Source: a virus
Lineage: Duplodnaviria > Caudoviricetes
Virus record (IMG/VR): IMGVR_UViG_3300020331_000002
Reading direction: 5' to 3' (one strand)
DNA: 64,000 nt
The translations under genes were made by a program, and so were the position numbers. Below the pieces are notes generated by a model. It was not told the DNA's origin, did no database searches, and saw only the letters and a list, made by a program, of their open reading frames with translations. Numbering within the stretch: the stretch's first letter is position 1; the number at the start of each line of letters is the position of its first letter. This document shows, piece by piece, positions 13,857 through 59,279 of this stretch.

Positions 13857-13980
13857 GGGTGGAGAGCAAGGAATTGAACCTCATCTTCCGGCTTGGGCTG
13901 AATGAAAACATGCTGTTAGAATACTAATACAGTATTCGTTATTTTCGTGGCCGGCGTGCAACCGTTACACTTTCTCTCCA
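13857..13980 (-). ncRNA. tRNA-like RNA with 50-nt insert in anticodon loop carrying the UAACAGCA module
   Basis: Acceptor UGGAGAG/CUCUCCA, D arm GUG/CAC with GG, AC stem CCGGC/GCCGG, T arm with UUCAAUU loop; 57-nt loop instead of 7. Confidence 0.8.
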
Positions 13981-13999
13981 TATTCGCTATTATACATTT

Positions 14000-16053: not shown

Positions 16054-16497
16054 CTACTTTAGAAAGCTTTTTGCCATTAAGCTACCAGCAGGAATAATAA
16101 TATAGTACACCGCGTTGTCACCGTGTCCCATTTCATTCCAGAAAAACAGCACGTAATCACCTGAGTTTACTTCCTGGATTACTAACGACTCACCGTGCAT
16201 GTCATTAATGCTGAACGGATCCGTAGCGGAGTCGTATTGCACGGGCGATGATATAAATTCAAGGCCCTCTCGCTCTACGCCAATTAAATCAGCTATCACT
16301 GACTCGTCAGAGTCAACAATATAAAGGTAGAAGCTTTCTACGCCGGGATCAAGGTTTATGATACCGTTACATAGCACGTTCGACACCATACCGGGCGGGA
16401 TAGGGGTATGTAAAACAGAGCCGGGGCGTATAAAAGAAAGTGACGAAAGTCCTGATCTAACAATGCCATCAACGGTGTTTGCGATTAACTGTGTCAT
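16054..16497 (-). CDS. hypothetical protein
   Basis: 147 aa. Confidence 0.7.
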   Translation of the reverse strand: MTQLIANTVDGIVRSGLSSLSFIRPGSVLHTPIPPGMVSNVLCNGIINLDPGVESFYLYIVDSDESVIADLIGVEREGLEFISSPVQYDSATDPFSINDMHGESLVIQEVNSGDYVLFFWNEMGHGDNAVYYIIIPAGSLMAKSFLK

Positions 16498-16559: not shown

Positions 16560-16718
16560 GACTATTCGCGAGTTGCCTTGCCGGTCATTTCTTTCTACCT
16601 TCTAGTTGCCATTTAGTAAGGCTGACCCCGGACCTTCCCCTAACTAAGTTAGGCTAGCTGGTTAAGTAGCTGGCTAGGCTCCACAGCACATACGGCCCCA
16701 GTTTGTCGCGATCCGGTC
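16560..16718 (-). ncRNA. putative structured RNA (~160 nt)
   Basis: ORF-free; nested helices UCGCGA/UCGCGA, GCCUAGCC/GGCAAGGC, CUAAC/GUUAG, GGUCA/UGACC. Confidence 0.45.
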
Positions 16719-16726
16719 TTTTTCGT

Positions 16727-16978
16727 TTAATCTTTGGTTGTCTTTTCAACATCCTCGATGTTCTGCATTACATCTTGCCTAAATGCTTTATACGCGCTCG
16801 CTAGCACATCAGGCCGCGTTAACCCGATCCACCACGACATGATGTTATTGATTCTATTCGAATCGTCAGAGGGAGCCTGCGGCGTTTTAAACCAATGGAA
16901 TACAGTTAGCATACCCAACAGTGTGAAGAATATACCACTAACCGAGAGTAAAAACAAAAATAGTGACAGAATCATAGA
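16727..16978 (-). CDS. small membrane protein
   Basis: Start re-called at MILSLF (GGAGG RBS); TM helix. Confidence 0.65.
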   Translation of the reverse strand, partial: SMILSLFLFLLSVSGIFFTLLGMLTVFHWFKTPQAPSDDSNRINNIMSWWIGLTRPDVLASAYKAFRQDVMQNIEDVEKTTKD

Positions 16979-16991
16979 ACCTCCTTTTCTT

Positions 16992-17486
16992 TTATTTACT
17001 GTCACCAAGCGCGGAGTTTATCAGTTCTGCCTCGCCGCTTAAAACGATGTCAAATTCAGCTTGCGCTTTCTTGAAAGCTCGCTTCTTTTTCTCTTTGAGC
17101 GCGGATATTTCGTCAGCATAGACATTGATAAAGTGTGCTTTGCCTTCCGTGTTCAAGAAGTTCCATAAGTAGAAGACTGACACAAAATCATTATACGGGT
17201 TGTCAAGCTTTGCGCGTATTACCTGTACTGTATTAAAGTACTCAACACCGCCGAGATCGTATACGCGAGCTCCGGTGATTTCGATATTATAATCTTTATT
17301 TTCGTGACGAGTCCAGCCATTACTTTTGCCAAGAAAATCACCCTCGACTTCAGTAAACTCGATATCAAAATATGACATGAATGTTTTCATTTCAATACGA
17401 GTCGGCTTCTTGAAATTGATTGTATTCCTATCAACAGCACCGGCGATAGTCTCAATACCAGGCGATAGGCTAAAAGCTTCTTTCAT
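16992..17486 (-). CDS. hypothetical protein
   Basis: 164 aa. Confidence 0.7.
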   Translation of the reverse strand: MKEAFSLSPGIETIAGAVDRNTINFKKPTRIEMKTFMSYFDIEFTEVEGDFLGKSNGWTRHENKDYNIEITGARVYDLGGVEYFNTVQVIRAKLDNPYNDFVSVFYLWNFLNTEGKAHFINVYADEISALKEKKKRAFKKAQAEFDIVLSGEAELINSALGDSK

Positions 17487-17504
17487 TACTTACTCAATAA
17501 AGGC

Positions 17505-17580
17505 TGGAGCACACTGCGGGATTCGAACCCGCGTATCTGGATTTGCAATCCAGTGCCTATATCCTCTCGGCCAAGCGTGC
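17505..17580 (-). tRNA. tRNA-Cys(GCA)
   Basis: Cloverleaf, AC arm CUGGA-UUGCAAA-UCCAG, U73, CCA. Confidence 0.92.
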
Positions 17581-17587
17581 TCTATGA

Positions 17588-17827
17588 TTAAGAACTAGCA
17601 GATGCAACAAGCGCAACGGCGTCAACTAGTGCAAGGATTTCATTTTCAGTTTTGTTTTCCAAATTTTCAAAACATAGATCCATTGACACACAATCTACGA
17701 ACTGAAGCTCAAATGAGTCAGTCATTGTCGGAATTACACCGACGTGAAACATGATCGGTGCCTTACCGCGAATATGTTTAGTCAATTCGTTAAAGAATTC
17801 TTTCGAAATAATCTTCTTGTTTGGCAT
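17588..17827 (-). CDS. hypothetical protein
   Basis: 79 aa. Confidence 0.6.
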   Translation of the reverse strand: MPNKKIISKEFFNELTKHIRGKAPIMFHVGVIPTMTDSFELQFVDCVSMDLCFENLENKTENEILALVDAVALVASASS

Positions 17828-17835
17828 CTTTTTTC

Positions 17836-18414
17836 CTAGTATGTACTTACGTCTTGAGCGAACTCGTCGCCAAACCCAACCAATAACTCAGTCATGTTTT
17901 GGCAATCAAGATAGTTGGCAGCGTGCACGTCTGCAAATATAGCAACGTCGCCGCGCTCACGGGGCTCTAACATTTCTGTCGACTTAACTAAAGTTTCGAC
18001 GTCCATTTCATAGTGTGCTTTAATATACGCGCCGTTTACAATGCTTCCTAAGCGCTGGCCATCGGCGTTGCCGCCATATAACATGAATTCTTCAGCGACG
18101 TAGTTACCTACGGGCATCGAGAAAGACTCACTATCGATTACTGCAATACGGTATTCGCCGATTTCGCATACTAGCAGACCGTTCAAGCCGTTCAGGCCTT
18201 CGTGCTTTGCTAGATCAGCCGGGTCGAGCATAGATATAACTTCGTCTATGTGTTCTTGGCTTTCGCATAGTGCAAGGCTTGTGCCGTCAGCGCCGCTGAT
18301 GTCGAGTGTAAAGCTAGTAGGCGGCTTTACGTTAGGTTGACAGTAATACGTGCCTTTGAGGTCAAGCTTACTGCCTGGATAGTGGATTTCTACCTTGTGT
18401 GGTACGAGTTTCAT
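17836..18414 (-). CDS. hypothetical protein
   Basis: 192 aa with GGAG RBS. Confidence 0.75.
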   Translation of the reverse strand: MKLVPHKVEIHYPGSKLDLKGTYYCQPNVKPPTSFTLDISGADGTSLALCESQEHIDEVISMLDPADLAKHEGLNGLNGLLVCEIGEYRIAVIDSESFSMPVGNYVAEEFMLYGGNADGQRLGSIVNGAYIKAHYEMDVETLVKSTEMLEPRERGDVAIFADVHAANYLDCQNMTELLVGFGDEFAQDVSTY

Positions 18415-18787
18415 GATCGTTCTCCGTTACGTAAAGCCTAATTACTTTACTATGCACAGTGTAGCACCGGATCCAAATCAGTCAACTGTTTTGTGAAAAA
18501 TAAATTATTTCTTTTTCTTCTTTTCTTTTTTGGCTGGCGCTACTTTTTCTTCAACTTTTATTTTAGGTGCGCTAACTGCTTGAGGTTCAATGTTATTTGC
18601 AAACACCGATTCTATTAGTTCAACAAACCATATTCCGTTTTTTCCCATATATCCTCCGTTATTATGATGATGGTGACCCTAGTGAAATTTAAACAAGCTT
18701 GATAGGCAATGTTCGATTCAGAAGGAGACGGTCTTATAAGTATATACTAGAAAATTTCATTAATTACCGGCATGTGGTGTAAAGAAG

Positions 18788-18908
18788 TGGTAGGGAGTGC
18801 AGGACTCGAACCTGCGACCCACGGCTTACAAGGCAATAAGGATATGCTGTTAGAATACTAAAACAGTATTCATGTTTACGTTGCTCTACCCAACTGAGCT
18901 AACTCCCT
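18788..18908 (-). ncRNA. tRNA (UGU anticodon, Lys-like body) interrupted by 44-nt insert carrying the UAACAGCA module
   Basis: Perfect acceptor, D and T arms and CCA; removing 18835-18878 restores ACGGC-CUUGUAA-GCCGU. Confidence 0.85.
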
Positions 18909-19119
18909 AGAAGTTTCTGATGAACTGTCTTAAGTCTTTGACACCTCCACATCCGAGTATTATTAATCCGCCTAGCGGCACTGCGCTAAAAATACCCACA
19001 AGCACGTTAAACGCGAAACAGTATATTATAGCCATTGCCAAACCCACATTAAGGGTCAATATGCCTGCCATCAAAAGCATTGCACAAAAACGGATTAATG
19101 TTTTAAATGTATTTTCCAT
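18907..19119 (-). CDS. small membrane protein
   Basis: 70 aa hydrophobic. Confidence 0.6.
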   Translation of the reverse strand: MENTFKTLIRFCAMLLMAGILTLNVGLAMAIIYCFAFNVLVGIFSAVPLGGLIILGCGGVKDLRQFIRNF

Positions 19120-19140
19120 TTTCTTAGTATGAACCCAAGC

Positions 19141-19416
19141 TTACTTTTTGTCAAGGAATTTTTTAAAATCACTGTAAATTTCTATGCCAGCTTCTTCAAC
19201 TTCCGCCTGTGTCAAAAACGCAGAGTCTGAGTACAAGGTACCGTCGCGTTTAATGAAGTAAAACCGATCATCGACTTTGCCCAAAACAGCACCCCGGCCC
19301 AAAAGTCCGGGCACCATATCAATCAACGAGGCTGCGCCAAACACGGTTGCCTTAAACAGTTCAGCATCAGGCACGATACCGATTAAAATGTCAGTGACGT
19401 CATTTATAGTAGCCAT
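19141..19416 (-). CDS. hypothetical protein
   Basis: 91 aa with GAGG RBS. Confidence 0.7.
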   Translation of the reverse strand: MATINDVTDILIGIVPDAELFKATVFGAASLIDMVPGLLGRGAVLGKVDDRFYFIKRDGTLYSDSAFLTQAEVEEAGIEIYSDFKKFLDKK

Positions 19417-19423
19417 GATAACC

Positions 19424-19765
19424 TCACTTAAACTTAACCGGTAGTGTTATATAATTGTTTGTATCGAATTCTACGATGCGCATGAGAGCCCAGCGTTCAG
19501 CGATAATATTGCGCTTTTTCCCTTTGACAGAAAGTTGGCAACGGAAGCGACCGTCCCAGAAGCTGCGCTTGAGCTTCTTTAGCTGGCCGGATTTAATCGA
19601 GAACACTTCTTCGCGCTCAATAGAAACGTAGTATCCGGGCGCATTTGAAATTGGATGTAAGAGATTCGAGTCGTTTAGATCAACGATATCACAGGGCGGG
19701 GATAGGTGTTGTTCATTAAAGCGGTCTAGCGCCGCTAGCACAGCTTCTTTAATTCTTTTAATCAT
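19424..19765 (-). CDS. hypothetical protein with NUMOD4/HNH-like N-terminal element
   Basis: PISNAPGYYVS....VFSIKSG..KKLK pattern. Confidence 0.5.
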   Translation of the reverse strand: MIKRIKEAVLAALDRFNEQHLSPPCDIVDLNDSNLLHPISNAPGYYVSIEREEVFSIKSGQLKKLKRSFWDGRFRCQLSVKGKKRNIIAERWALMRIVEFDTNNYITLPVKFK

Positions 19766-19781
19766 AGTAACCTCGAGTTAA

Positions 19782-19888
19782 GGTTGCCGGGCCAAGGAAT
19801 CGAACCTCGTTCGGGTGCATACTTGCGAAGTTTGCTGCGACAAATCTAAACAGACTTAATGGAGTCCCTCAGAATCATTCACCCGGCA
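19782..19888 (-). ncRNA. tRNA-like RNA (acceptor + T arm) with CGCAGCAA module and no anticodon arm
   Basis: UGCCGGG/CCCGGCA stem, CGAGG-UUCGAUU-CCUUG T arm, hairpin-GUCGCAGCAA-hairpin core. Confidence 0.65.
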
Positions 19889-19932
19889 TAATAGGTACGT
19901 ATAAGGATAGTACCTATTTGATTAAAAGTCTA

Positions 19933-29311: not shown

Positions 29312-29707
29312 TTATTTAGCATGTTGCTCAAGGACTGATCTATTATCTTCTTCATCCGGATGCTTGTTTCTGCGTGCATCGGCTTCTTGCCTCATACTGA
29401 CTAAATGCTTGCCGGGCTTACCGAGTACCACATCGTGAATAGGTTCTATACGTATAGTATCAATAATTTGACAATACTTTGCTCTTAACTCGTCACTTAT
29501 CTTAGTATACTCGGTACGCGAGCCAAAAAAGAAATTACTAACTTCTTTAGGAGATCCTGCGATTAACCATTTTAGATGATTGACTGTTTTACCGATTCTT
29601 TCAACTAAATGGCCGTAATTGCATCCCGCAACAAGTGAGTCACCGTCTAAAAGAAATTCAGTATCACCATCTTTCAAAGTGTAAACAACGATGTATATTT
29701 TGGCCAC
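29312..29707 (-). CDS. hypothetical protein
   Basis: 131 aa, GAGG RBS. Confidence 0.7.
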   Translation of the reverse strand: MAKIYIVVYTLKDGDTEFLLDGDSLVAGCNYGHLVERIGKTVNHLKWLIAGSPKEVSNFFFGSRTEYTKISDELRAKYCQIIDTIRIEPIHDVVLGKPGKHLVSMRQEADARRNKHPDEEDNRSVLEQHAK

Positions 29708-29728
29708 AGTATTGCCTCGTTAAGAAAT

Positions 29729-29880
29729 TGGGCGAGCCGCCGGGATTCGAACCCGGGAATACAGAATACTTCCGCTATTTGCATTTCACTTGGCATTGTC
29801 CGTACCTTTAAACCCCTCATACCAATACTTGGCTTAAAGAACCGATGCACCGATTCTTAAAGTTGCAAGGAGTCAGCCCG
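29729..29880 (-). ncRNA. tmRNA-like/tRNA-like RNA, 152 nt, G3-U70 pair
   Basis: CGGGCUG/CGGCUCG-C-CCA acceptor, CCGGG-UUCGAAU-CCCGG T arm, no D or anticodon arm. Confidence 0.7.
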
Positions 29881-29890
29881 ATTGTTAAAA

Positions 29891-29970
29891 TGGCGCAGGT
29901 GTAGGGAGTCGAACCCTCAAGTCTCTCGACACGGTTTTGGAGACCGCTTTGCTCGCCAATGCGCACCTAC
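29891..29970 (-). tRNA. tRNA-Trp(CCA) with extended variable arm
   Basis: GCGGU-CUCCAAA-ACCGU; variable hairpin GUC-GAGA-GAC; G73, CCA. Confidence 0.85.
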
Positions 29971-33808: not shown

Positions 33809-33905
33809 TAGTACCAGGTACGGGATTCGAACCCGCAGGGTCATTATTGCAGACCGCGACAAGCACTTCCGTGATGCCGCGCCTTCCCATTCGGCGCAAC
33901 CTAGT
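33809..33905 (-). ncRNA. atypical tRNA-like gene (CGG loop, A33, long variable arm, ACUA end)
   Basis: Paired acceptor, D and T arms; loop CACGGAA; about 25-nt variable region. Confidence 0.65.
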
Positions 33906-34783: not shown

Positions 34784-34862
34784 TGGTTGCAAGGGCGGGA
34801 TTTGAACCCGCGTCCGCTAGGGTTATGAGCCCTGCCATCTGCCAGACTGATTGTACCTTGCT
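34784..34862 (-). tRNA. initiator tRNA-fMet(CAU) #2
   Basis: A1:A72 mismatch, CAGGG/CCCUA AC stem, CCA. Confidence 0.85.
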
Positions 34863-34868
34863 ATTGTT

Positions 34869-34948
34869 TGGCGCGGCAGGTAGGAGTCGAACCCACATGT
34901 TTCCAATTACTCTTTCGACTGGTTCGTAGCCAGAGGAGATACAACCGC
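34869..34948 (-). ncRNA. rearranged tRNA-Arg(ACG)-like RNA lacking a 5' D arm
   Basis: Acceptor GCGGUUG/CUGCCGC-G-CCA, CUGG-CUACGAA-CCAG, D-loop-like UAAUUGG located 3' of anticodon arm. Confidence 0.7.
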
Positions 34949-40767: not shown

Positions 40768-40863
40768 TGTATCCTCGATTAATATTCAATAGGAACCGTA
40801 GTTCCTTGCTATAGTTTTATTTAGCACCGCAAAACCATTTTTTACGGCAGCTAGTAATAAAAC

Positions 40864-40918
40864 AGGCTAGTTTTTTTAAAACGCCAATGTTTTTTAAAAA
40901 AATTGCTGTTCCTAGCCT
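40864..40918 (-). ncRNA. AACAGCAA module copy A
   Basis: AGGCUAG-GAACAGCAA-[U7A4...U4A7 hairpin]-CUAGCCU. Confidence 0.75.
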
Positions 40919-40947
40919 AAGTCGTTTGTTCTAAAAACATGGTGTCT

Positions 40948-40975
40948 ATTATACATGCTTTTAAAACGTTGTCAA
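40948..40975 (-). promoter_or_regulatory. sigma70-like promoter driving module A
   Basis: TTGACA-N16-TATAAT. Confidence 0.8.
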
Positions 40976-41009
40976 GAACTTTTTTCAACTTTCTTGACTT
41001 TAATAAGTC

Positions 41010-41074
41010 GGGTTGCTTTTACTAGGTTCGAAGGATGAGTTCGAATTTTCGTAAAGTTTTGCTGTTAGCAACCC
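41010..41074 (-). ncRNA. AACAGCAA module copy B
   Basis: GGGUUGC-UAACAGCAA-[UUCGAA...UUCGAA hairpin region]-GCAACCC-GACUUA. Confidence 0.75.
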
Positions 41075-41304
41075 ATAATAGATATACACCGTGATGCACA
41101 TGTATTATGAGTAAAAATAGCAGCGAACTATCCAAAGGGTTGGGAGTTCTCCAGATAGTCGCTACCCAAGAGAGTGGATGAACACTCTAGACAAACAAAA
41201 TAAGTCGGGCTACATTATCTAAAGTCAAATTAAAAGTTTGATGATCGATAATATTGCTGTTAGTAGCCCATAATAGATATACACCGTGATGCACATGTAT
41301 TATG
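41072..41304. repeat. 38-nt perfect direct repeat (41072-41109 and 41267-41304), itself a hairpin
   Basis: cccataatagatatacaccgtgatgcacatgtattatg twice. Confidence 0.95.
41207..41269 (-). ncRNA. AACAGCAA module copy C
   Basis: GGGCUAC-UAACAGCAAU-[AUUAUC...GAUAAU]-GUAGCCC-GACUUA. Confidence 0.78.
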
Positions 41305-41449
41305 GGTTCTAACATTACACCCGGTTTTGGGTCCTAAATTGCCGTACTCCCGGGGTAACATTAAAAATTAACGCCGTATCCAAATATATGCGTTCAGGTC
41401 AAATCGGATAAAAATCACCTACTAACACATAAGAAGAACTTTGTTAAAC

Positions 41450-41513
41450 TGGATGCATTAAGTACTGGTTTGATTAGAAGTCAAAAGTAATTAAATGTTG
41501 CTGTTAGCATCCA
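41450..41513 (-). ncRNA. AACAGCAA module copy D
   Basis: UGGAUGC-UAACAGCAAC-[AUUUAAUUACU...AGUACUUAAU]-GCAUCCA. Confidence 0.78.
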
Positions 41514-41562
41514 AAACTTTTTAGCTTTACGGAAACTTTGTTTCCCTAACGCTGTCTTATCT

Positions 41563-44040: not shown

Positions 44041-47000
44041 TTAGCCTCTATAATATTTCGGATGTGCAATCTCTACCTGGAACTGAGGGTCTTGTTCAAA
44101 GAACTTATTAAAGTAATTATCCGGGATCGGCTTTTCAAACGCCGGTATTAAGTCAGCGACATCTTGCGGTGTAACATCAGGCTCAATCACAGGCCATTTA
44201 AAATCGAACGTATCGACACGGAATTTAACGGTATTGTCTATCTCCGGTATTATACCGTAACGTAATCGACCGTTTCTTCTCCCTTCAAGCGTCTGCGGTG
44301 CGTATTGGATAAGTCCGTCCTCTGCGACGATACGAACACCGTCGCCATACTTTAATTCTTCCAGTGCTGCTGTCGGCCACTCGACTGCCTCGACTTTCGC
44401 ATTACCTATATCAAGCACGGTAAGGACCCCGTCTACCGGATCATGTTCTTGCGCTTGTATAGGATGCATCTGCTTAAGTACGTCTGGCAGATCTGTAATA
44501 AGCGAGTTGGACGTAATCGTAACAAGATCCTGCCTATAATAATGATCTTCTACTGCGTAAACGTCGGCCGCCTCGTCGAACCTTGCCGGTATCATATCAG
44601 CTTTAAACACATATGGACGGTTTCCGACGTCGTCGAGCAGCATACCGACTACCGGTATGTATTTGTCGTGTTCTGCTAGTACTGATACTACAAGATGGCG
44701 CGCCCACACGTCTGATTCTAAGTGGTGATCTATGGCCTCAGGCGCTAAATCGTCTGCCTCATAGGATACCGCTACAGCCTTCATAATCGCTTGAGTGTCT
44801 GTAATATACGATTTTACTACCCTGTCAAATGAAACAGTACTGATATCGAATACCGGTCTGATGTCCAGATGCTCGGGAACATCGTCACGGTAGCCGGTTT
44901 TTAACGGCCCTGTATCGACATGAACCTTAAACGGGTTGTACATTAAAGCGACATTGTCGTGATGGTATAGATCTTCAACAGGGGTTTGCTTATCTGTGAG
45001 TACCCACTTATCGTCGAATATGGCTTCTACCAAACCAGGAACAGTAGCAACTTCGTGATCTATCTCATATGCCGTATGCTGATATTGTTGGTCTATTATG
45101 TAGAAAGTGCCTTGCAATCTAGTCGGCGCCGCTATTGCAGGGCGGGAATATACTGGCTTGCCGTCTACATGATAATAATAATCAAACACCTTATGTTCAA
45201 GGTGTTCCGGCATATGCTCCCAACCATTATAGTCGGGGTCATAACCAAAGAGCGTATCTATGTCACGGCGAGCGTATTGGCCCCAAACCGGAACCGACTC
45301 TGTCCATGGCGTGCCTTCATACGGGTTCCATGCTTCTATCGGCGTGCCGGGCGAAGACATATGCGGATCGGTTACGTGACCTACTCGCATCGGCTCAGGT
45401 TCGTAATCATCAGCTGACTGGAAATCGAAGCCCCACTCCAGGATAACAGGATCTGAATCCCTGTTATCGATGTCACCTGCGCCGAATTCTGTGCTCAAAA
45501 CGTAACGTGTATTCCGCGAAAGTACTGGCCGAAACACCGCGCGTTGTGCTGTGTTAGTCACAACAGGGCGCACTCTATCTAGCACCACGCCTTCGCTGTC
45601 TTTCAGAACTAGCCACTTGACGTCATCGGGGTTGGTAAACACAGTGTTGCCTTTAGCAAACAACACTGTCAGTTTTACTTCACGATCCTCGGTTTCAAAG
45701 TCTATGTCATTAGGGTAAACACTATACCCGTCAGGATCATCTAGCGAGTTTAAGATAATTCCTGCGCTAGAGGACGTAGAGTATAATCTATTTGCATTTA
45801 ATTCAGGCAGAGCATCAGCGCCATCATCGTACTTGGCATCTCTAGACCAACCTTTGAATTGGTGATCTAAGGTGTTAACCGGCGACGCTGCGTTGCCACT
45901 TGCTGCGGCTAGTAACTCAGGCACAGTTAGCGGCCAGTTATAGGCAGTAATATCCTGCACAACTAGGTTCGGGTTTATGTTTGCCAAACTACTCACTACA
46001 CCAAGTGACAGATGATGCGTGCGCATCATTCCTTGGTCAAGCGGCAGAGTTGTTTCTTGAATACAACGTTCATTTACATACACTCGTATCAGTCCTCTAT
46101 CATATACAATACTTATAAGAACTCGCTCGTTATATTTTGTTGCGCTTGCCATTGCTGTATGGATTCTATCAGCTACGTTCAGCTTTAGTGGACCATCGTT
46201 TACGTCTTTTACAAAAGCGCCGTCAGACGAAACACCGTCGCGCCATATACCGATTGTTCTCGGAAATATGTCATGCTCGGTCGGCACGCCCCACAATATA
46301 TCATGCTGTGCAAAAACGCCTATACCACCGTCTTGTGCTGGATTGTTGGTTTCTTGCCATGCATTAGTCCTGATACTCAAAGTCCATTGATCGTACGTCT
46401 GTGGCGCTAGAGCACAGCTATCTATACTATACCAACCAGCAGGATACATACCGTATGTGCCGTCTGGGAATTGATATTTCGCAGGGTCACCATTATTGCG
46501 CGAGTCCAAGTCAGTACGCTTAAATCGCAATACATCATAATACGTATTATCCGGTGTATCGAAAGACACCATCATCGAACGTCCTTTTTCTCGCGTATCC
46601 TTACCGACTAACGAATGGGCAAATACGAACCGTCTTATAGTAATTTCAGAACTCGGATCCTGGTGCGGGTCATAGAACTCTACTTTATACGTGCCGGCGT
46701 ATGGTACTTCTATATCATACCATCTAGACTCAGTCTCAACCGCAGGATCATATTCTGTGTCAGATATAATTTTAGCGGTTGTCAGGTTATGAAGTCGTAA
46801 CGTCGTGCGATCAGTGTTGCCATGTGTCGAGTCAATATACACACGCACTCGGGCAGGTCCAGAAGCTTGGAACGATACATATTCGCCATGCGCAAATACC
46901 AAATCAGTTCTATCTGATGAAAAGTCATATGCGGCATTTATTAGATTATTGACCGACTGTACTGCTGCCGAACGCACTACTACGTTAGATATATCAAGCA

Positions 47001-54950: not shown

Positions 54951-55190
54951 ATTTTACTACCTTGATGGGTTGCCTATAGTAACACATTAGCACCGGTAAA
55001 TTTTTTTGCAAACTTTTTTATTGGAAAACCTTTTTCAAAACAAGAACCTGTTAGAAACTGAAAACTTTTTTAATTTTTTTTCCAAAAACACTTGCGCACC
55101 TGTCAAAAAGACCTATAATAGATAATGTAGGTTAAATAAGTAACCCACTAAACAAACTTTTGATTTTTTGATTTTATAAGGTAAGACATT

Positions 55191-55514
55191 ATGACAAACG
55201 CAAACACTAACGTAAAAACTACTTTTAACGCTGTTCGTACTGCTAATGGTTATGACTACACTCACGTTAACCAAGACGGTGCGCAACACAAAATGACTTT
55301 TGTGTGGAAGAAAGGCACTCGCGGTAACCCAATACACCTTAAGGTTGCTGACGACAACAAAGCAGTTCTTTCACTAATGATCGGCGGTGCTAAGACGCGT
55401 GCTGATGCTGATAAAAAAGCTCGTGACTATATCCAAAAGCACAACCTACGTAAACAGCTTCGTGATTGGGCGAAAGGCAAAATTGATCGTCCGATGCTTG
55501 TTAAAGCGAAGTAA
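55191..55514 (+). CDS. hypothetical basic protein (early)
   Basis: 107 aa, highly biased codons, promoter at 55092-55119. Confidence 0.75.
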   Translation: MTNANTNVKTTFNAVRTANGYDYTHVNQDGAQHKMTFVWKKGTRGNPIHLKVADDNKAVLSLMIGGAKTRADADKKARDYIQKHNLRKQLRDWAKGKIDRPMLVKAK

Positions 55515-55526
55515 TTAATAATTTAC

Positions 55527-55554
55527 AAAAGCCTACTTTTATAGTAGGCTTTTT
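55527..55554. terminator. bidirectional terminator
   Basis: AAAAGCCTACT-TTTAT-AGTAGGCTTTT. Confidence 0.75.
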
Positions 55555-55574
55555 CATACCTGATATACGAAGGA

Positions 55575-55784
55575 ATGAATATGAAAAAAACTAATCCAGC
55601 CATTTTAGCAGTGTACAAGAGATGCCAACAGGGCGACAATTCTGCTCGTAAGGAGCTCGTAGAACATCACAAAAAGAAGTTTCCGCGCCACAGCATTCAC
55701 GCTAGCAAAGAAAACTTCGACACTATGTTGAGCTCTAACGGCGCTCCTAAGTTTTATCATATGCTGTACTTGCACCTAACTTAA
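55575..55784 (+). CDS. hypothetical protein
   Basis: 69 aa. Confidence 0.6.
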   Translation: MNMKKTNPAILAVYKRCQQGDNSARKELVEHHKKKFPRHSIHASKENFDTMLSSNGAPKFYHMLYLHLT

Positions 55785-55877
55785 TCAAACAGAAATTCTT
55801 TTTGAAAAAGTCTTGCGGCTGTCATTGTTTCATCTATAATAGATTATGTAAGTTGATTTATTAAAAAGGTTGAAATT

Positions 55878-56078
55878 ATGACACAGTTACTAGCAGATAT
55901 CAAAGCGTTTTGTTTAGCACACTACGAAGAAGGTTATGATTCTTGTGTAGAGTGCTGGGACGACAAAGATTATGTTGAGTTCATCGAAGAGTGGGGTGTC
56001 AAATCAGTTGACGATTTTGTTAAAGAATACGCCCCGATAATCAGTCACGCTAACGAAATCCGCAGCACTGCCTTTTAG
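55878..56078 (+). CDS. hypothetical protein (early)
   Basis: 66 aa, promoter at 55813-55841. Confidence 0.7.
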   Translation: MTQLLADIKAFCLAHYEEGYDSCVECWDDKDYVEFIEEWGVKSVDDFVKEYAPIISHANEIRSTAF

Positions 56079-56097
56079 TGCTGCAAGGAGTCTTGAT

Positions 56098-56388
56098 ATG
56101 CCATCGCCAAATATACCGCAAGAACTTCGTCAAGCTTGGGCCGAAATACATGGGTTCAAGCTACGTGAAATGATCAAAGCCGAATGCCCTGATGTTGAAG
56201 TACGTTCGTGTGACTCAAAACGACGTCACTATAAACTGAAAGGCAAAGTGCGAACTGTCAACTTGTACGCGTCAACGGGTACAATATCAGTCGAACCGCA
56301 CGGTGATATGAAAGGTTTTAACCAACGTTTAATGATGCCAGAACGCGCAATTAAACGAGCTGTTACTATAGCGAACATCGGCTACTAA
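56098..56388 (+). CDS. hypothetical protein
   Basis: 96 aa, AAGGAG RBS. Confidence 0.7.
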   Translation: MPSPNIPQELRQAWAEIHGFKLREMIKAECPDVEVRSCDSKRRHYKLKGKVRTVNLYASTGTISVEPHGDMKGFNQRLMMPERAIKRAVTIANIGY

Positions 56389-56412
56389 AAACTGTCACTT
56401 ATTTCAGCCAAC

Positions 56413-56440
56413 AAAAAAGCCGCTCGAAAGCGGCTTTTTT
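56413..56440. terminator. bidirectional terminator
   Basis: A6-GCCGCT-CGAA-AGCGGC-T6. Confidence 0.85.
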
Positions 56441-56462
56441 CATCTTAGCTATTCAACTAGGA

Positions 56463-59279
56463 TTATGAGTTGCGGTATTCAACTACAACCACACCTGCAC
56501 CTTCTGTCGCGCCATTCGGAGTAACAGTGAACTGAGCAGTAACGTCAGAGCCACCCACAGTAACAAGAGGAGTAGTTTCGAACACACCTTGTACTTCAGG
56601 ATCGTTTTCGTCAGCTGACATGTACACCACAGCAGAGCTGTCGTCGAACAATACTTCAGCAGCAGTATCAGCGATGCTGTTAACTTTGAAGCTAACGCGC
56701 ATAACAGTAGATCCTGCAGGGATAGTACCAAGTGACACAGTGCCCGCCGCAGTTAGATCAACAGCCGCACTTAGTGAAGCAATAGATCCAGGTACTACGT
56801 TACCAGCAATTTCTTCGTCAACGTATGCTTTGGTTACAAGCGTTGTATCAGTACCAGAAGTACGGATGTCAGCAGCAACGTCAGCAGAGTCGTTAGCGAT
56901 GTCGATTAGACCAGTACCCTTAGTAGCAAGAGTAAGACCAACATCAGTGTCAGAACCAGTTGCGCGTAATACAGGAGCAACGCCAGCAGCACCAGCAACA
57001 AACTCAAGGTTGTTTACCGCGCCTGCAGGAGAGTTAGCAACTTCAGCAACAAGGTTGCCGTTCGCGTCAATTAGCTTAACAGTACCGTTGGTACCTGTGC
57101 CAGAAGCAGAACCACCACGTAGTTCAACATCACCAGCTTGGCCGTCTTCAGCAGCACCACCAGAGATTACAACATCACCAGCGTTTTGGTTACCGGTGTT
57201 TTCACCAGCCTCAATTACAAGAGACTCACCAGTGTCGGCAGTAATTGCACCCGCGCCGCCAGAACCAATAATTACTTCGCCAGAGCCGTTAGGAAGAAGA
57301 ACTAAGTCTTGGTCCGCGCCTAGTGTAGTAATAGTGTTTCCAGAGATGTTGATGTCTGCAACATCTAGGCCGCCAGCAGCGTCGATGTCAACTTTGTCAT
57401 TTACTGAGTCGTAAATTACGCCAGCGCTTTGGTCGAAATCACCACTTGCGTCAGTGAATACTAGACCACCATCTACTGTAAGAGTAGAGTCAGCAAGACC
57501 AGCCGCAGAGAATGTGCCGCCAACTGATAGGTTACCAACAACATCAGCGTCGCCGCCTACGTCAAGGTTACCAGAGAAATCACCAGCGCCAGTTACTGTT
57601 AGTACGCCTGCAGAAAACGCCAGTGCCGCGTCGTCAACAAGTTGTCCATTAGCGCCAGCAAGTACTAGGCGACCAGAGGTTAAGTTAGCAGCTTCAACAG
57701 TGTCACCTTTAACAACTGTAGAAGAAAGTGCACCAGTAGCAGAGTCGAACGTAAAGGCTGCGTCGTCAACTAGTTGGCCGTTAGCGCCTGCAAATACTAC
57801 ACGACCTTCAGCAAGGTTAGATGCAATAATTTGGTTAGCTTGTAGGCCAGATGCATCCCAAACACCTGCTTGTACGCCATCAACAGTAATAGTGATCGCG
57901 CCAGTTCCTGAATCAGATACTGCTACACTTGTATCGCCTTCTTCAATAGAGTTAGCAGACGTGTAGTTGTCGCCGATATAAGTACCAAGCGTGTCAAGAG
58001 TTACTTTTTCGTTTGCGCCAGTTGAAGCGTTAAAGAACACAACTTCGTCTAGTACATCAAGAGCTTCTGCCGCAGCAGTTAAGCCATTAATGTCAAGACC
58101 AACAGTCATGTTACCAGATACGCCGTCGCCGTTAGCGATTACGATACCAGCTTCATCAGCAGCACTAGATGCTTCTAGTGTACGAGATGCATAAGTACCA
58201 GCCGCTGTGCGAACTAGAATGCCGTCAGCAGTCGCGCTTACTAGGTCTTTGTCGGCCAATAGTTGGTTGAAAGAGATCTTTTCAATTGTACCGCCGTTGT
58301 TAACGATAACTTCTTGTGAACCGTCAGCCGGTGCAGTTACCGCAGCAAGTGAAGCAAAGTCAAAAGAAAGAGTTGGGTCGCCAGCGATGCCGTCTGCGTT
58401 AGTCCATACTAGGCCGTCACCTGATTGGAAAGTACGAGATGCATAAGTGTCGTCAGCAGTGCGTGCAACGAAACCATCTGCGCTGATGCCTTTAACTACG
58501 TCAAGCGAGTTGATCATGCTTGCGATAGTAGTCTTAGCCATTGTGCCAGTTGACGCGTCGTAAATTGCGATTTCGTCAGCTTCAGCAGCCACAGCAGACG
58601 CAAGACCAACAGTGTAGTCTAGTTCAACAGTGTTGCCGGTTAGGCTAATACCAGTGTCAGTATTGATTTGGCCAGCTTCAGAGAACTGAACCCAAACAAT
58701 TGCATCAGTGTTAAGATCAATAAGACCAGAACCTTGAACCACCCAACCAGTAGTTGCGCCAGCGGCACCTTGTTCTACGAATACGAAGTTACCGGCTGAA
58801 ACTTCAGCAGCAGGTGAACCGTCTTGGTCCAATGCACGTTGCCATACGCCGTCAGCGCCAGTACCCGCTGTAACTACTTCGTAGATACCATTTTGTAGAG
58901 TGTCAGTTTGGTTCTTAACAAGAACACGATCACCGTCTACAAGAGTTTCGCCGTCTACTACATTAGGAGCAGCAGTAAAGCCACCAGTAGAGTTAGCACC
59001 AGCTGATGCGTCGTAAGTTGCGCCAAGGTCAGCAGTAGTCGCAACACGCACTGAGCCTTTAGGGTCAAGACCAGCAGAAAGGCTGTCTACATACTCTTTA
59101 GTCGTTGCGTCAGATGCGTTTACCGGTGTTGCAACTTGTACACGAGACAGTGTAGAACCATCTTTCGCTGTAGCCTTAAAGGTACCATTGGCTGTGTCAA
59201 ATCCTAGTTTACCGCCGCCTTTGCCAAGCTGTAAACTAGAGCCAACACCCTTAATGCTATAATTAATAATATCAGACAT
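56463..59279 (-). CDS. large Gly/Ala/Thr-rich virion structural (fibre/decoration) protein
   Basis: DATTKEYVD, SVRVATT, DRVLVKNQ....NGIY motifs; start re-called at MSDII (AAGGAG RBS); strong highly-expressed codon bias. Confidence 0.8.
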   Translation of the reverse strand: MSDIINYSIKGVGSSLQLGKGGGKLGFDTANGTFKATAKDGSTLSRVQVATPVNASDATTKEYVDSLSAGLDPKGSVRVATTADLGATYDASAGANSTGGFTAAPNVVDGETLVDGDRVLVKNQTDTLQNGIYEVVTAGTGADGVWQRALDQDGSPAAEVSAGNFVFVEQGAAGATTGWVVQGSGLIDLNTDAIVWVQFSEAGQINTDTGISLTGNTVELDYTVGLASAVAAEADEIAIYDASTGTMAKTTIASMINSLDVVKGISADGFVARTADDTYASRTFQSGDGLVWTNADGIAGDPTLSFDFASLAAVTAPADGSQEVIVNNGGTIEKISFNQLLADKDLVSATADGILVRTAAGTYASRTLEASSAADEAGIVIANGDGVSGNMTVGLDINGLTAAAEALDVLDEVVFFNASTGANEKVTLDTLGTYIGDNYTSANSIEEGDTSVAVSDSGTGAITITVDGVQAGVWDASGLQANQIIASNLAEGRVVFAGANGQLVDDAAFTFDSATGALSSTVVKGDTVEAANLTSGRLVLAGANGQLVDDAALAFSAGVLTVTGAGDFSGNLDVGGDADVVGNLSVGGTFSAAGLADSTLTVDGGLVFTDASGDFDQSAGVIYDSVNDKVDIDAAGGLDVADINISGNTITTLGADQDLVLLPNGSGEVIIGSGGAGAITADTGESLVIEAGENTGNQNAGDVVISGGAAEDGQAGDVELRGGSASGTGTNGTVKLIDANGNLVAEVANSPAGAVNNLEFVAGAAGVAPVLRATGSDTDVGLTLATKGTGLIDIANDSADVAADIRTSGTDTTLVTKAYVDEEIAGNVVPGSIASLSAAVDLTAAGTVSLGTIPAGSTVMRVSFKVNSIADTAAEVLFDDSSAVVYMSADENDPEVQGVFETTPLVTVGGSDVTAQFTVTPNGATEGAGVVVVEYRNS

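Follow-up and report, generated by a model that had tools for sequence, protein, structure and literature searches.

A divergent tRNA-framed RNA, probably of the CAGCAA family, in a marine jumbo phage, a candidate Y RNA partner of a Ro60-like protein

Y RNAs and their protein partner Ro60 are known from animals and bacteria, and their job is poorly understood. Ro60 binds the bulged stem of Y RNAs, and the bacterial Y RNA called YrlA mimics tRNA (PMC4201824). Phages also carry such pairs. Thus, the Ro60 of phage phiLo (phiRo60) binds two phage Y-like RNAs, Yrl1 and Yrl2 (PMC12135203; PDB 9L5Y). The Ro60-like protein gp130 of phage Bas63 counters the Ppl defence, and the authors of this work suggested that the neighbouring "tRNA genes" may be Y RNAs (10.1101/2024.10.10.617714). 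For the DUF2828 branch of phage Ro60-like proteins, which counts at least 6980 relatives, no published RNA partner was found. In the same way, no published description was found of the CAGCAA family of RNAs considered here or of its closed form framed by a tRNA.

The RNA under study, E3, belongs to an uncultured marine jumbo phage, of which a stretch of 64,000 nt (the window) was analysed. The closest relative of the window is G001, a 306.5-kb IMG/VR contig with terminal repeats that is about 90% identical across the window and is called below the sister phage. The window includes a long tRNA region on the minus strand, with 23 tRNAs called by ARAGORN and 21 Rfam tRNA matches. E3 lies on the minus strand, tightly between two small ORFs, and neither a sigma-70-like promoter nor an intrinsic terminator was found beside it. 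Directly upstream, the sequence holds a conserved 9-bp hairpin (AAUAGGUAC...GUACCUAUU, 19890-19918, minus strand); in the sister allele, an A-to-G change keeps the pairing as G.U and the loop diverges. This hairpin is possibly a processing or terminator element.

According to its sequence, a constrained fold and the comparison with the sister phage, E3 is a tRNA-shaped RNA of 103 nt (19785-19887, minus strand, as for all its parts), running from G1 to a discriminator A that is directly followed by ACC, not by CCA. The 5' strand of the acceptor stem (GCCGGGU, 19881-19887), unchanged in both alleles, pairs with the 3' strand (GCCCGGC, 19786-19792) through six Watson-Crick pairs and one G.U pair. 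After GA at positions 8-9, a D arm (AUG / AUUCUGAGGGACUC / CAU, 19859-19878) combines a 3-bp stem with a 14-nt loop containing GGG. The place of the anticodon arm is occupied by the hairpin S1 (UAAGUC-UGUUUA-GAUUUG, 19841-19858), recognized by the descriptor given below. It is followed by the linker UCG and the core CAGCAA (19832-19840), within which CGCAGCAA spans 19839-19832. Then comes a distal hairpin (within 19817-19835), folded by RNAfold as ACUU-CGC-AAGU (19831-19821) and drawn alternatively as GCAAAC-UUCGCAA-GUAUGC (19835-19817), an anticodon-arm look-alike with an A.A mismatch. The segment AUGCACCCGAA lies between the ACUU-CGC-AAGU hairpin and the T arm (CGAGG-UUCGAUU-CCUUG, 19793-19809), which was also found by a T-loop scan and shares 15 of its 17 bases with the T arm of E1, another RNA of the window (see below).

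The original prediction had described a tRNA-like top half devoid of anticodon, enclosing the S1 hairpin, CGCAGCAA and the ACUU/AAGU hairpin. All the named parts are there, the three core elements in this order on the minus strand, and so is the top half with its UUCGAUU T loop. The acceptor is better drawn as GCCGGGU/GCCCGGC (19887-19881/19792-19786) with A19785 as discriminator, the U-A pair of the first drawing being base -1 with the discriminator. The D arm (19878-19859) and the anticodon-arm look-alike had been overlooked. The lack of anticodon therefore holds for the standard place, whereas the distal hairpin is a degenerate look-alike of an anticodon arm, with the loop UUCGCAA.

E3 shares with tRNAs (RF00005) the 7-bp acceptor stem, the discriminator base, the UUCGAUU T arm and the GG of the D loop. 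However, it has no anticodon arm at 27-43, the loop UGUUUA or UGUAUUA bearing a G in place of U33. A 32-nt region separates the S1 arm from the T arm, and the UUCGCAA hairpin is displaced and mismatched. Neither ARAGORN nor the Rfam tRNA model calls E3 a tRNA, and its best Rfam match is tRNA-Sec with 15 bits (E=3). The cloverleaf-like constrained fold has an energy of -28.0 kcal/mol versus -33.8 for the minimum free energy fold, a gap within the range for real tRNAs. The CGCAGCAA 8-mer alone is not enriched in the window (59 matches with at most one mismatch versus 57 expected). Two other structural or functional candidates were rejected: an H-type pseudoknot, on steric grounds, and an anti-repeat of a Cas9 tracrRNA in AACAGCAUA, a resemblance with nothing in its support.

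The candidate protein partner is encoded by the sister phage (G001 55838-57274) as a 478-aa protein with DUF2828 and DUF7788. Since Pfam TROVE matched neither the sister phage nor the Enterococcus phage discussed below, the link with Ro60 comes from Pfam DUF2828 and from a structure model. In this model (pLDDT 87.9, from an alignment of 32 sequences), the DUF2828 protein is predicted to adopt the fold of a Ro60 ring, and each of its 13 top-ranking matches in the PDB is a Ro60/TROVE ring, headed by the Ro60 of Thermus phage phiLo (9KOP, crystal; 9L5Y, complex). No module was found upstream of the gene. It is flanked by genes encoding a calcineurin-like phosphoesterase and an HD-domain hydrolase (G001 55155-58190; L014 15155-18190), a neighbourhood that may be a context of RNA-end healing or nucleotide signals.

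Among the described RNAs, YrlA (RF02553) resembles E3 in that it does not decode and combines a stem-plus-bulge module with a tRNA-like body made of T arm, D arm and acceptor-type stem, and in both cases the genome encodes a Ro60-type ring protein (predicted, and through the sister phage, for E3). Furthermore, the CAGCAA of E3 resembles in form the Rsr site GNCGAA of YrlA, i.e. a helix end followed by an unpaired C/G-A-A. However, the topology is reversed: in YrlA, a loop caps the acceptor and the two ends of the RNA belong to the Ro-binding stem, whereas the acceptor of E3 is open and its module stem is capped. YrlA carries the motif GNCGAAN0-1G near its 5' end (PMC4201824), whereas E3 carries CAGCAA. 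A TROVE gene lies on the same strand as YrlA and at most 4 kb away, whereas the Ro60-like gene of the sister phage is not adjacent to E3 but about 118 kb away. In addition, the candidate partner of E3, a DUF2828/DUF7788 protein, is missed by Pfam TROVE, unlike the partner of YrlA. E3 gave no match to the Rfam YrlA model (gathering score 69 bits) at E-values up to 10. Topology, motif, score and gene distance all fail, and E3 is thus not a member of RF02553. The RNAs Yrl1 and Yrl2 of phiLo are close to the proposed reading of E3, as phage Y-like RNAs associated with a phage Ro60 ring, the binding being putative for E3. However, their CGAA motif sits in a large internal bulge of the 5'-3' stem, they are adjacent to the protein gene and no tRNA frame has been reported for them.

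The T-loop scan of the window revealed two further tRNA-like genes that are not called as tRNAs, E1 (about 13860-13982) and E2 (18790-18906), both tRNA mimics encoded on the minus strand. In E1, the anticodon-side stem is extended and bears the closed module at its tip. In E2, a tRNA-Thr(UGU) body is interrupted by 44 nt that include GAAUAC-UGUUUUA-GUAUUC-UAA-CAGCAU, so that the module common to both RNAs reads GAAUAC-UGU(A/U)UUA-GUAUUC-UAA-CAGCA(U/A). This module and that of the sister-allele E3 agree at 19 of 28 positions, the loop CUGUAUUAG being identical throughout. Of the nine differences, six sit in three stem pairs that are all still paired (G-C to C-G, A-U to U-A and U-A to G.U, from E1/E2 to S1 of E3). 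Judged from these sequences, the E3 module is homologous to the E1 and E2 modules.

Once its 44 nt are removed, E2 gives a clean tRNA-Thr(UGU) in ARAGORN, and the sister E2 gives a tRNA-Ile(GAU). The anticodon-like loop is CUUGUAA (UGU, Thr) in the window versus CUGAUAA (GAU, Ile) in the sister phage (G001 174227-174369), and the two E2 alleles are about 96% identical apart from this loop. The "anticodon" displayed by E2 thus seems to change while the frame stays.

A descriptor of the closed module (a hairpin of at least 5 bp with a loop UGU..A of 5-7 nt, then 1-4 nt and CAGCA[AU]) has four matches in the window, namely the three RNAs E1, E2 and E3 and a place within a coding region. Dinucleotide shuffles (300) yield 0.033 match each on average, and other phage loci totalling 1.25 Mb (both strands) yield none. 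Among the loci searched, the closed, tRNA-framed module is therefore confined to this phage lineage. The match within a coding region (UCUAC-UGUAAGA-GUAGA-GU-CAGCAA, 57468-57495, plus strand) is antisense within a gene of 949 aa and is conserved in the sister phage as coding DNA would be; this match, at +57490, is probably due to chance. Two weak HMM matches (16207-16225 and 46152-46168) also lie within coding regions and look like chance.

Relatives of E3 are scarce. Among GenBank phages, a DNA search with E3 and protein searches with both flanking ORFs gave none. The scans of IMG/VR, with an exact 20-mer of E3 or with a degenerate pattern of the closed module, both returned the sister phage alone, plus chance matches in coding regions. 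When metagenomes were scanned with the protein encoded upstream, no E3 allele beyond the two already known came up. Across all the collections searched, E3 is known from these two alleles (the window and G001), and the covariation within E3 rests on this single pair.

Other peculiarities were observed among the tRNA genes of the window. Long extra arms, uncommon in tRNAs of these types, are seen in several of the called ones (Glu, Lys, Asn and Pro). Three tRNA-like genes with good T arms (about 29830-29914, 29670-29752 and 34810-34892, minus strand) are not called by ARAGORN, one of them combining a CUCCAAA loop (Trp, CCA) with a reduced D arm. At 33811-33905 (minus strand), ARAGORN calls a 95-nt tRNA-Pro(cgg), and at the corresponding place of the sister phage (G001 189501-189597) a 97-nt "tRNA-Stop(tta)", which is possibly a suppressor-type allele.

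The CAGCAA module also exists in an open form, which came to light through a match between the 3' half of E2 and unannotated DNA of Enterococcus phages of the genus Schiekvirus. In these phages, two tRNA-like domains with loop-capped acceptor stems separate three CAGCAA modules from one another. This array (L001 1190-1870, minus strand; OL870611.1 39423-40103) is unannotated and extends from promoter to terminator. The Rfam YrlA model gives 45.9 and 34.3 bits for two units of the array (E=6e-9 and 1e-5), short of its gathering score of 69. The gene located directly downstream of the array, as in Enterococcus phage UTI-EfS3, is a DUF2828 gene annotated as hypothetical.

To examine this association, 80 IMG/VR loci with a DUF2828 gene (L050-L129) were fetched, module counts being made over 79 of them and start-codon distances over 75. 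In these loci, AACAGCAA was found 65 times on the strand of the gene and 13 times on the other strand. The structural scan of the 79 loci for the open module shows the same bias (176 versus 34), and 110 copies are at most 500 nt upstream of the DUF2828 gene. In 39 of the 75 loci, the 3' end of the module is 4-30 nt from the DUF2828 start codon and its UGU tail runs into the ribosome-binding site. In this position the module looks like an autoregulatory operator, a placement that suggests, indirectly, binding of the protein to the module. Open modules are present in arrays of two to four per locus, and some of them are far from the start codon.

The consensus of the open family is UUUUA-[G(G/A)(A/U)Unnn]-N1-4-CAGCAA ... 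[nnnA(U/A)(C/U)C]-UGUU. Among 106 family members, CAGCA is invariant by construction of the scan and the next base is A in 93%, whereas the base preceding CAG is free (A, U, C or G). This freedom, the fixed UGUU and the lack of covariation led to the rejection of a CUGU/ACAG helix, as pseudoknot or as switch; UGUU appears to be simply a conserved tail and no strand of a switch helix. The middle of open modules often copies the anticodon arm of a tRNA, with loops such as CUUUUAA, CUUCUAA, CUUGUAA, CUCAUAA or CUGUAAA. No Rfam family was matched by the open modules. A covariance model built from 35 open modules of other phages (R2) recognized in the window four open-form modules, A to D (40860-41517, minus strand), with 42.1, 32.0, 28.1 and 17.6 bits (E from 1.4e-7 to 0.11), as well as their copies in the sister phage and one module of an Enterococcus phage.

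The loops of E1, E2 and E3 (UGUUUUA, UGUAUUA and UGUUUA) correspond to the 3' tail UGU(U) of the family fused to its 5' leader UUA. Such a fusion of tail and leader indicates that the module of E1-E3 is a closed, end-joined (i.e. circularly permuted) form of the open module, held in a tRNA frame with an open acceptor. Open modules (A-D and the Schiekvirus array) share with E1-E3 the stem consensus, the linker and CAGCAA, and the leader and tail bases; an anticodon-arm look-alike often follows their core, as in E3. However, they have free ends at the stem, whereas those of E1-E3 are joined in a loop of 6-7 nt and the module is grafted in a tRNA frame.

E3 follows the family in detail. The 5'-type strand of S1, GAUUUG, which pairs with UAAGUC, fits the family stem of 6-7 bp with its start G-(G/A)-(A/U)-U. 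UCG-CAGCAA fits the linker of 1-4 nt followed by CAGCA(A/U), and the same 9-mer is found in locus L054. The leader UUUUA and the tail UGUU are present as a fused loop, UGU-UUA in the window or UGUAUUA in the sister phage. On the other hand, E3 departs from the open family by S1, which is loop-closed and without free ends. In its sequence features, although not in its topology, E3 thus fits the DUF2828-linked family, and its variant core lies within the variation of this family.

The prediction that E3 is a third tRNA-mimicking member of the CAGCAA family is supported by the homology with the E1 and E2 modules, by the UCG-CAGCAA of L054 and by the strong conservation described below. Its proposed verification with a covariance model gave no such support. 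A model of the closed copies E1 and E2 (R1), over-fitted since it was trained on four near-identical sequences, gives E3 9.6 bits (E=7.8, rank 10 in the window). R2, which recognizes A-D, does not match E3, but its open topology cannot fit the closed form. These failures have technical causes (training set for one model, topology for the other), so that the verification was taken to speak neither for nor against E3 membership. A sequence-only HMM of computationally permuted junctions places E3 at rank 8 in the window (E=0.8), the undoubted copy B having E=1.3. S1 of E3 includes two G.U pairs, and its loop is one base short in the window. E3 should be regarded as an added, more divergent copy beside E1 and E2, whose main contribution is natural covariation in S1.

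The comparison of the two E3 alleles reveals three substitutions and two single-base indels in 103 nt (2.9% substitutions), whereas 27.5% of the four-fold degenerate sites (690 sites) of seven flanking genes differ between the window and G001. Without constraint, 28 substitutions would be expected in E3, and the probability of three or fewer is 2e-9. By this measure, E3 is under strong purifying selection, as expected from a functional RNA and not from a decaying one. The sister allele is longer by one A in the D loop and by another in the loop of S1, which reads UGUAUUA versus UGUUUA in the window. A U-to-C change turns the closing pair of S1 from U.G (window) to C-G (sister). In the T loop, the fourth base (position 56 in tRNA numbering) changes from C to U, which gives UUUGAUU and would keep a G19.U56 contact. 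The last change, U to C in the distal hairpin, creates an A.C mismatch beside the A.A mismatch of the anticodon-like drawing. These changes are benign and avoid or preserve the helices.

Taken together, these data suggest that E3 is probably a third, divergent tRNA-mimicking Y RNA partner of a Ro60-like protein, i.e. a stable, non-coding and non-decoding RNA; we hold this reading with moderate confidence. Several other explanations were weighed against it. E3 could be a real decoding tRNA (Ala-CGC type), either functioning despite an extra arm or freed of a module of 23-26 nt by splicing. Deletion of 23-26 nt indeed leads ARAGORN to call a tRNA-Ala(cgc) with the arm GCAAAC-UUCGCAA-GUAUGC, the shortened E2 is likewise a clean tRNA-Thr(UGU), and many tRNAs of this phage bear unusual extra arms. 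However, only 4 of 2060 deletion variants of E3 are called, and none for the sister allele, which has the A.C mismatch beside A.A. Alanine tRNAs are marked by G3.U70, whereas the E3 acceptor has C3-G70. Moreover, the insert is away from the canonical intron site, we know of no short-intron splicing of this kind in bacteria or phages, and the E3 module is conserved, unlike a passive intron. A decoding role is thus improbable, and we read the distal hairpin as a degenerate display of an anticodon arm, like those of open modules, rather than as a working anticodon. That E3 would be a decaying pseudogene, arisen by duplication in the tRNA region, is a still weaker proposal: no caller accepts it, its loop length varies between alleles and its T loop and distal stem have changed, but the rate of substitution (2.9% versus 27.5% at neutral-like sites, P=2e-9) and the scaffold helices, intact in both alleles, make it very improbable.

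The failure of R1 and R2 to score E3 fits another explanation, which places E3 outside the CAGCAA family, as a tRNA-like RNA or a processing signal, for example a punctuation mark cut by RNase P/Z between genes, its resemblance to the family being a coincidence. The lack of enrichment of the 8-mer and the tight position between ORFs, without own promoter or terminator, would also suit such a signal. Coincidence agrees poorly with the rarity of the full descriptor (0.033 by chance per window and none in 1.25 Mb), with the identity of the sister E3 loop and the E1/E2 loop, and with stem differences that keep pairing. Furthermore, the interior of E3 is conserved, beyond the acceptor and T halves needed by RNase P, which argues against a mere punctuation mark. 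We consider this explanation unlikely. The last one accepts the module but gives it another reader, for instance a nuclease of the host, a different RNA-binding protein of the phage or a partner RNA, the link with DUF2828 being only cis-regulation. The overlap of the module with the ribosome-binding site of DUF2828 in 39 of 75 loci indicates regulation without specifying the binder, and the sister phage has a Ro60-like gene without upstream module. Nevertheless, autoregulation through the own binding site of the protein is the simplest reading of this placement, modules are also found in arrays of two to four and far from start codons, and the DUF2828 protein has, in the model, the fold of a known Y RNA binder. 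A reader other than the Ro60-like protein is therefore decidedly unlikely.

E3 would be produced from a longer transcript. Its excision is the natural inference from the lack of an own promoter or terminator and from the conserved upstream hairpin. Host tRNA-processing enzymes would cut it, with RNase P generating the 5' end and either RNase Z or exonucleases the 3' end, and a host enzyme would then add CCA; a search of the sister phage for a CCA-adding enzyme of the PolyA_pol family found none. Parts of the region were recovered in four marine metatranscriptome libraries. One of them includes a contig of 3204 nt (16710-19913), without differences, that covers E3, E2 and a tRNA-Cys at a depth of 118, its neighbours having depths of 4-15. 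This is a weak hint of transcription, as contigs come without ends or strand and the libraries may contain DNA. Positions 19624-19847 are without contig in runs X18 and X19, and the only contig in run X20 is thin and stops at 19775, but contigs cannot show absence.

The E3 module would dock the Ro60-like ring of the phage as the bulged stem of Y RNAs docks Ro60, and the tRNA body and the distal anticodon-like hairpin would lend the particle a tRNA-like face. More speculatively still, this particle might serve RNA surveillance or counter-defence while the phage infects its host, perhaps by acting as a decoy or adaptor towards tRNA-recognizing enzymes.

E3 provides natural covariation for the module stem, the same loop and core being found on a different, still paired stem. 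In E1-E3, the module still appears to be under selection with its ends joined in a tRNA frame, which suggests that the protein reading it would not need free ends. E1-E3 are, moreover, small, well-defined RNAs suitable for binding and structural work. One member of the DUF2828 branch has been reported to defeat a bacterial defence. As a tentative proposal, phages may possess a class of Ro60-type particles built around RNAs that display parts of tRNAs, anticodon arms in the case of open modules and whole bodies in the case of E1-E3. The closed forms would thereby bring the Ro60-like ring before host enzymes attacking or inspecting tRNAs. E3 would then be a processed, perhaps modified, tRNA-like RNA that, loaded with protein, could serve as a decoy or adaptor blunting defences of the anticodon-nuclease type or other RNA-directed defences.
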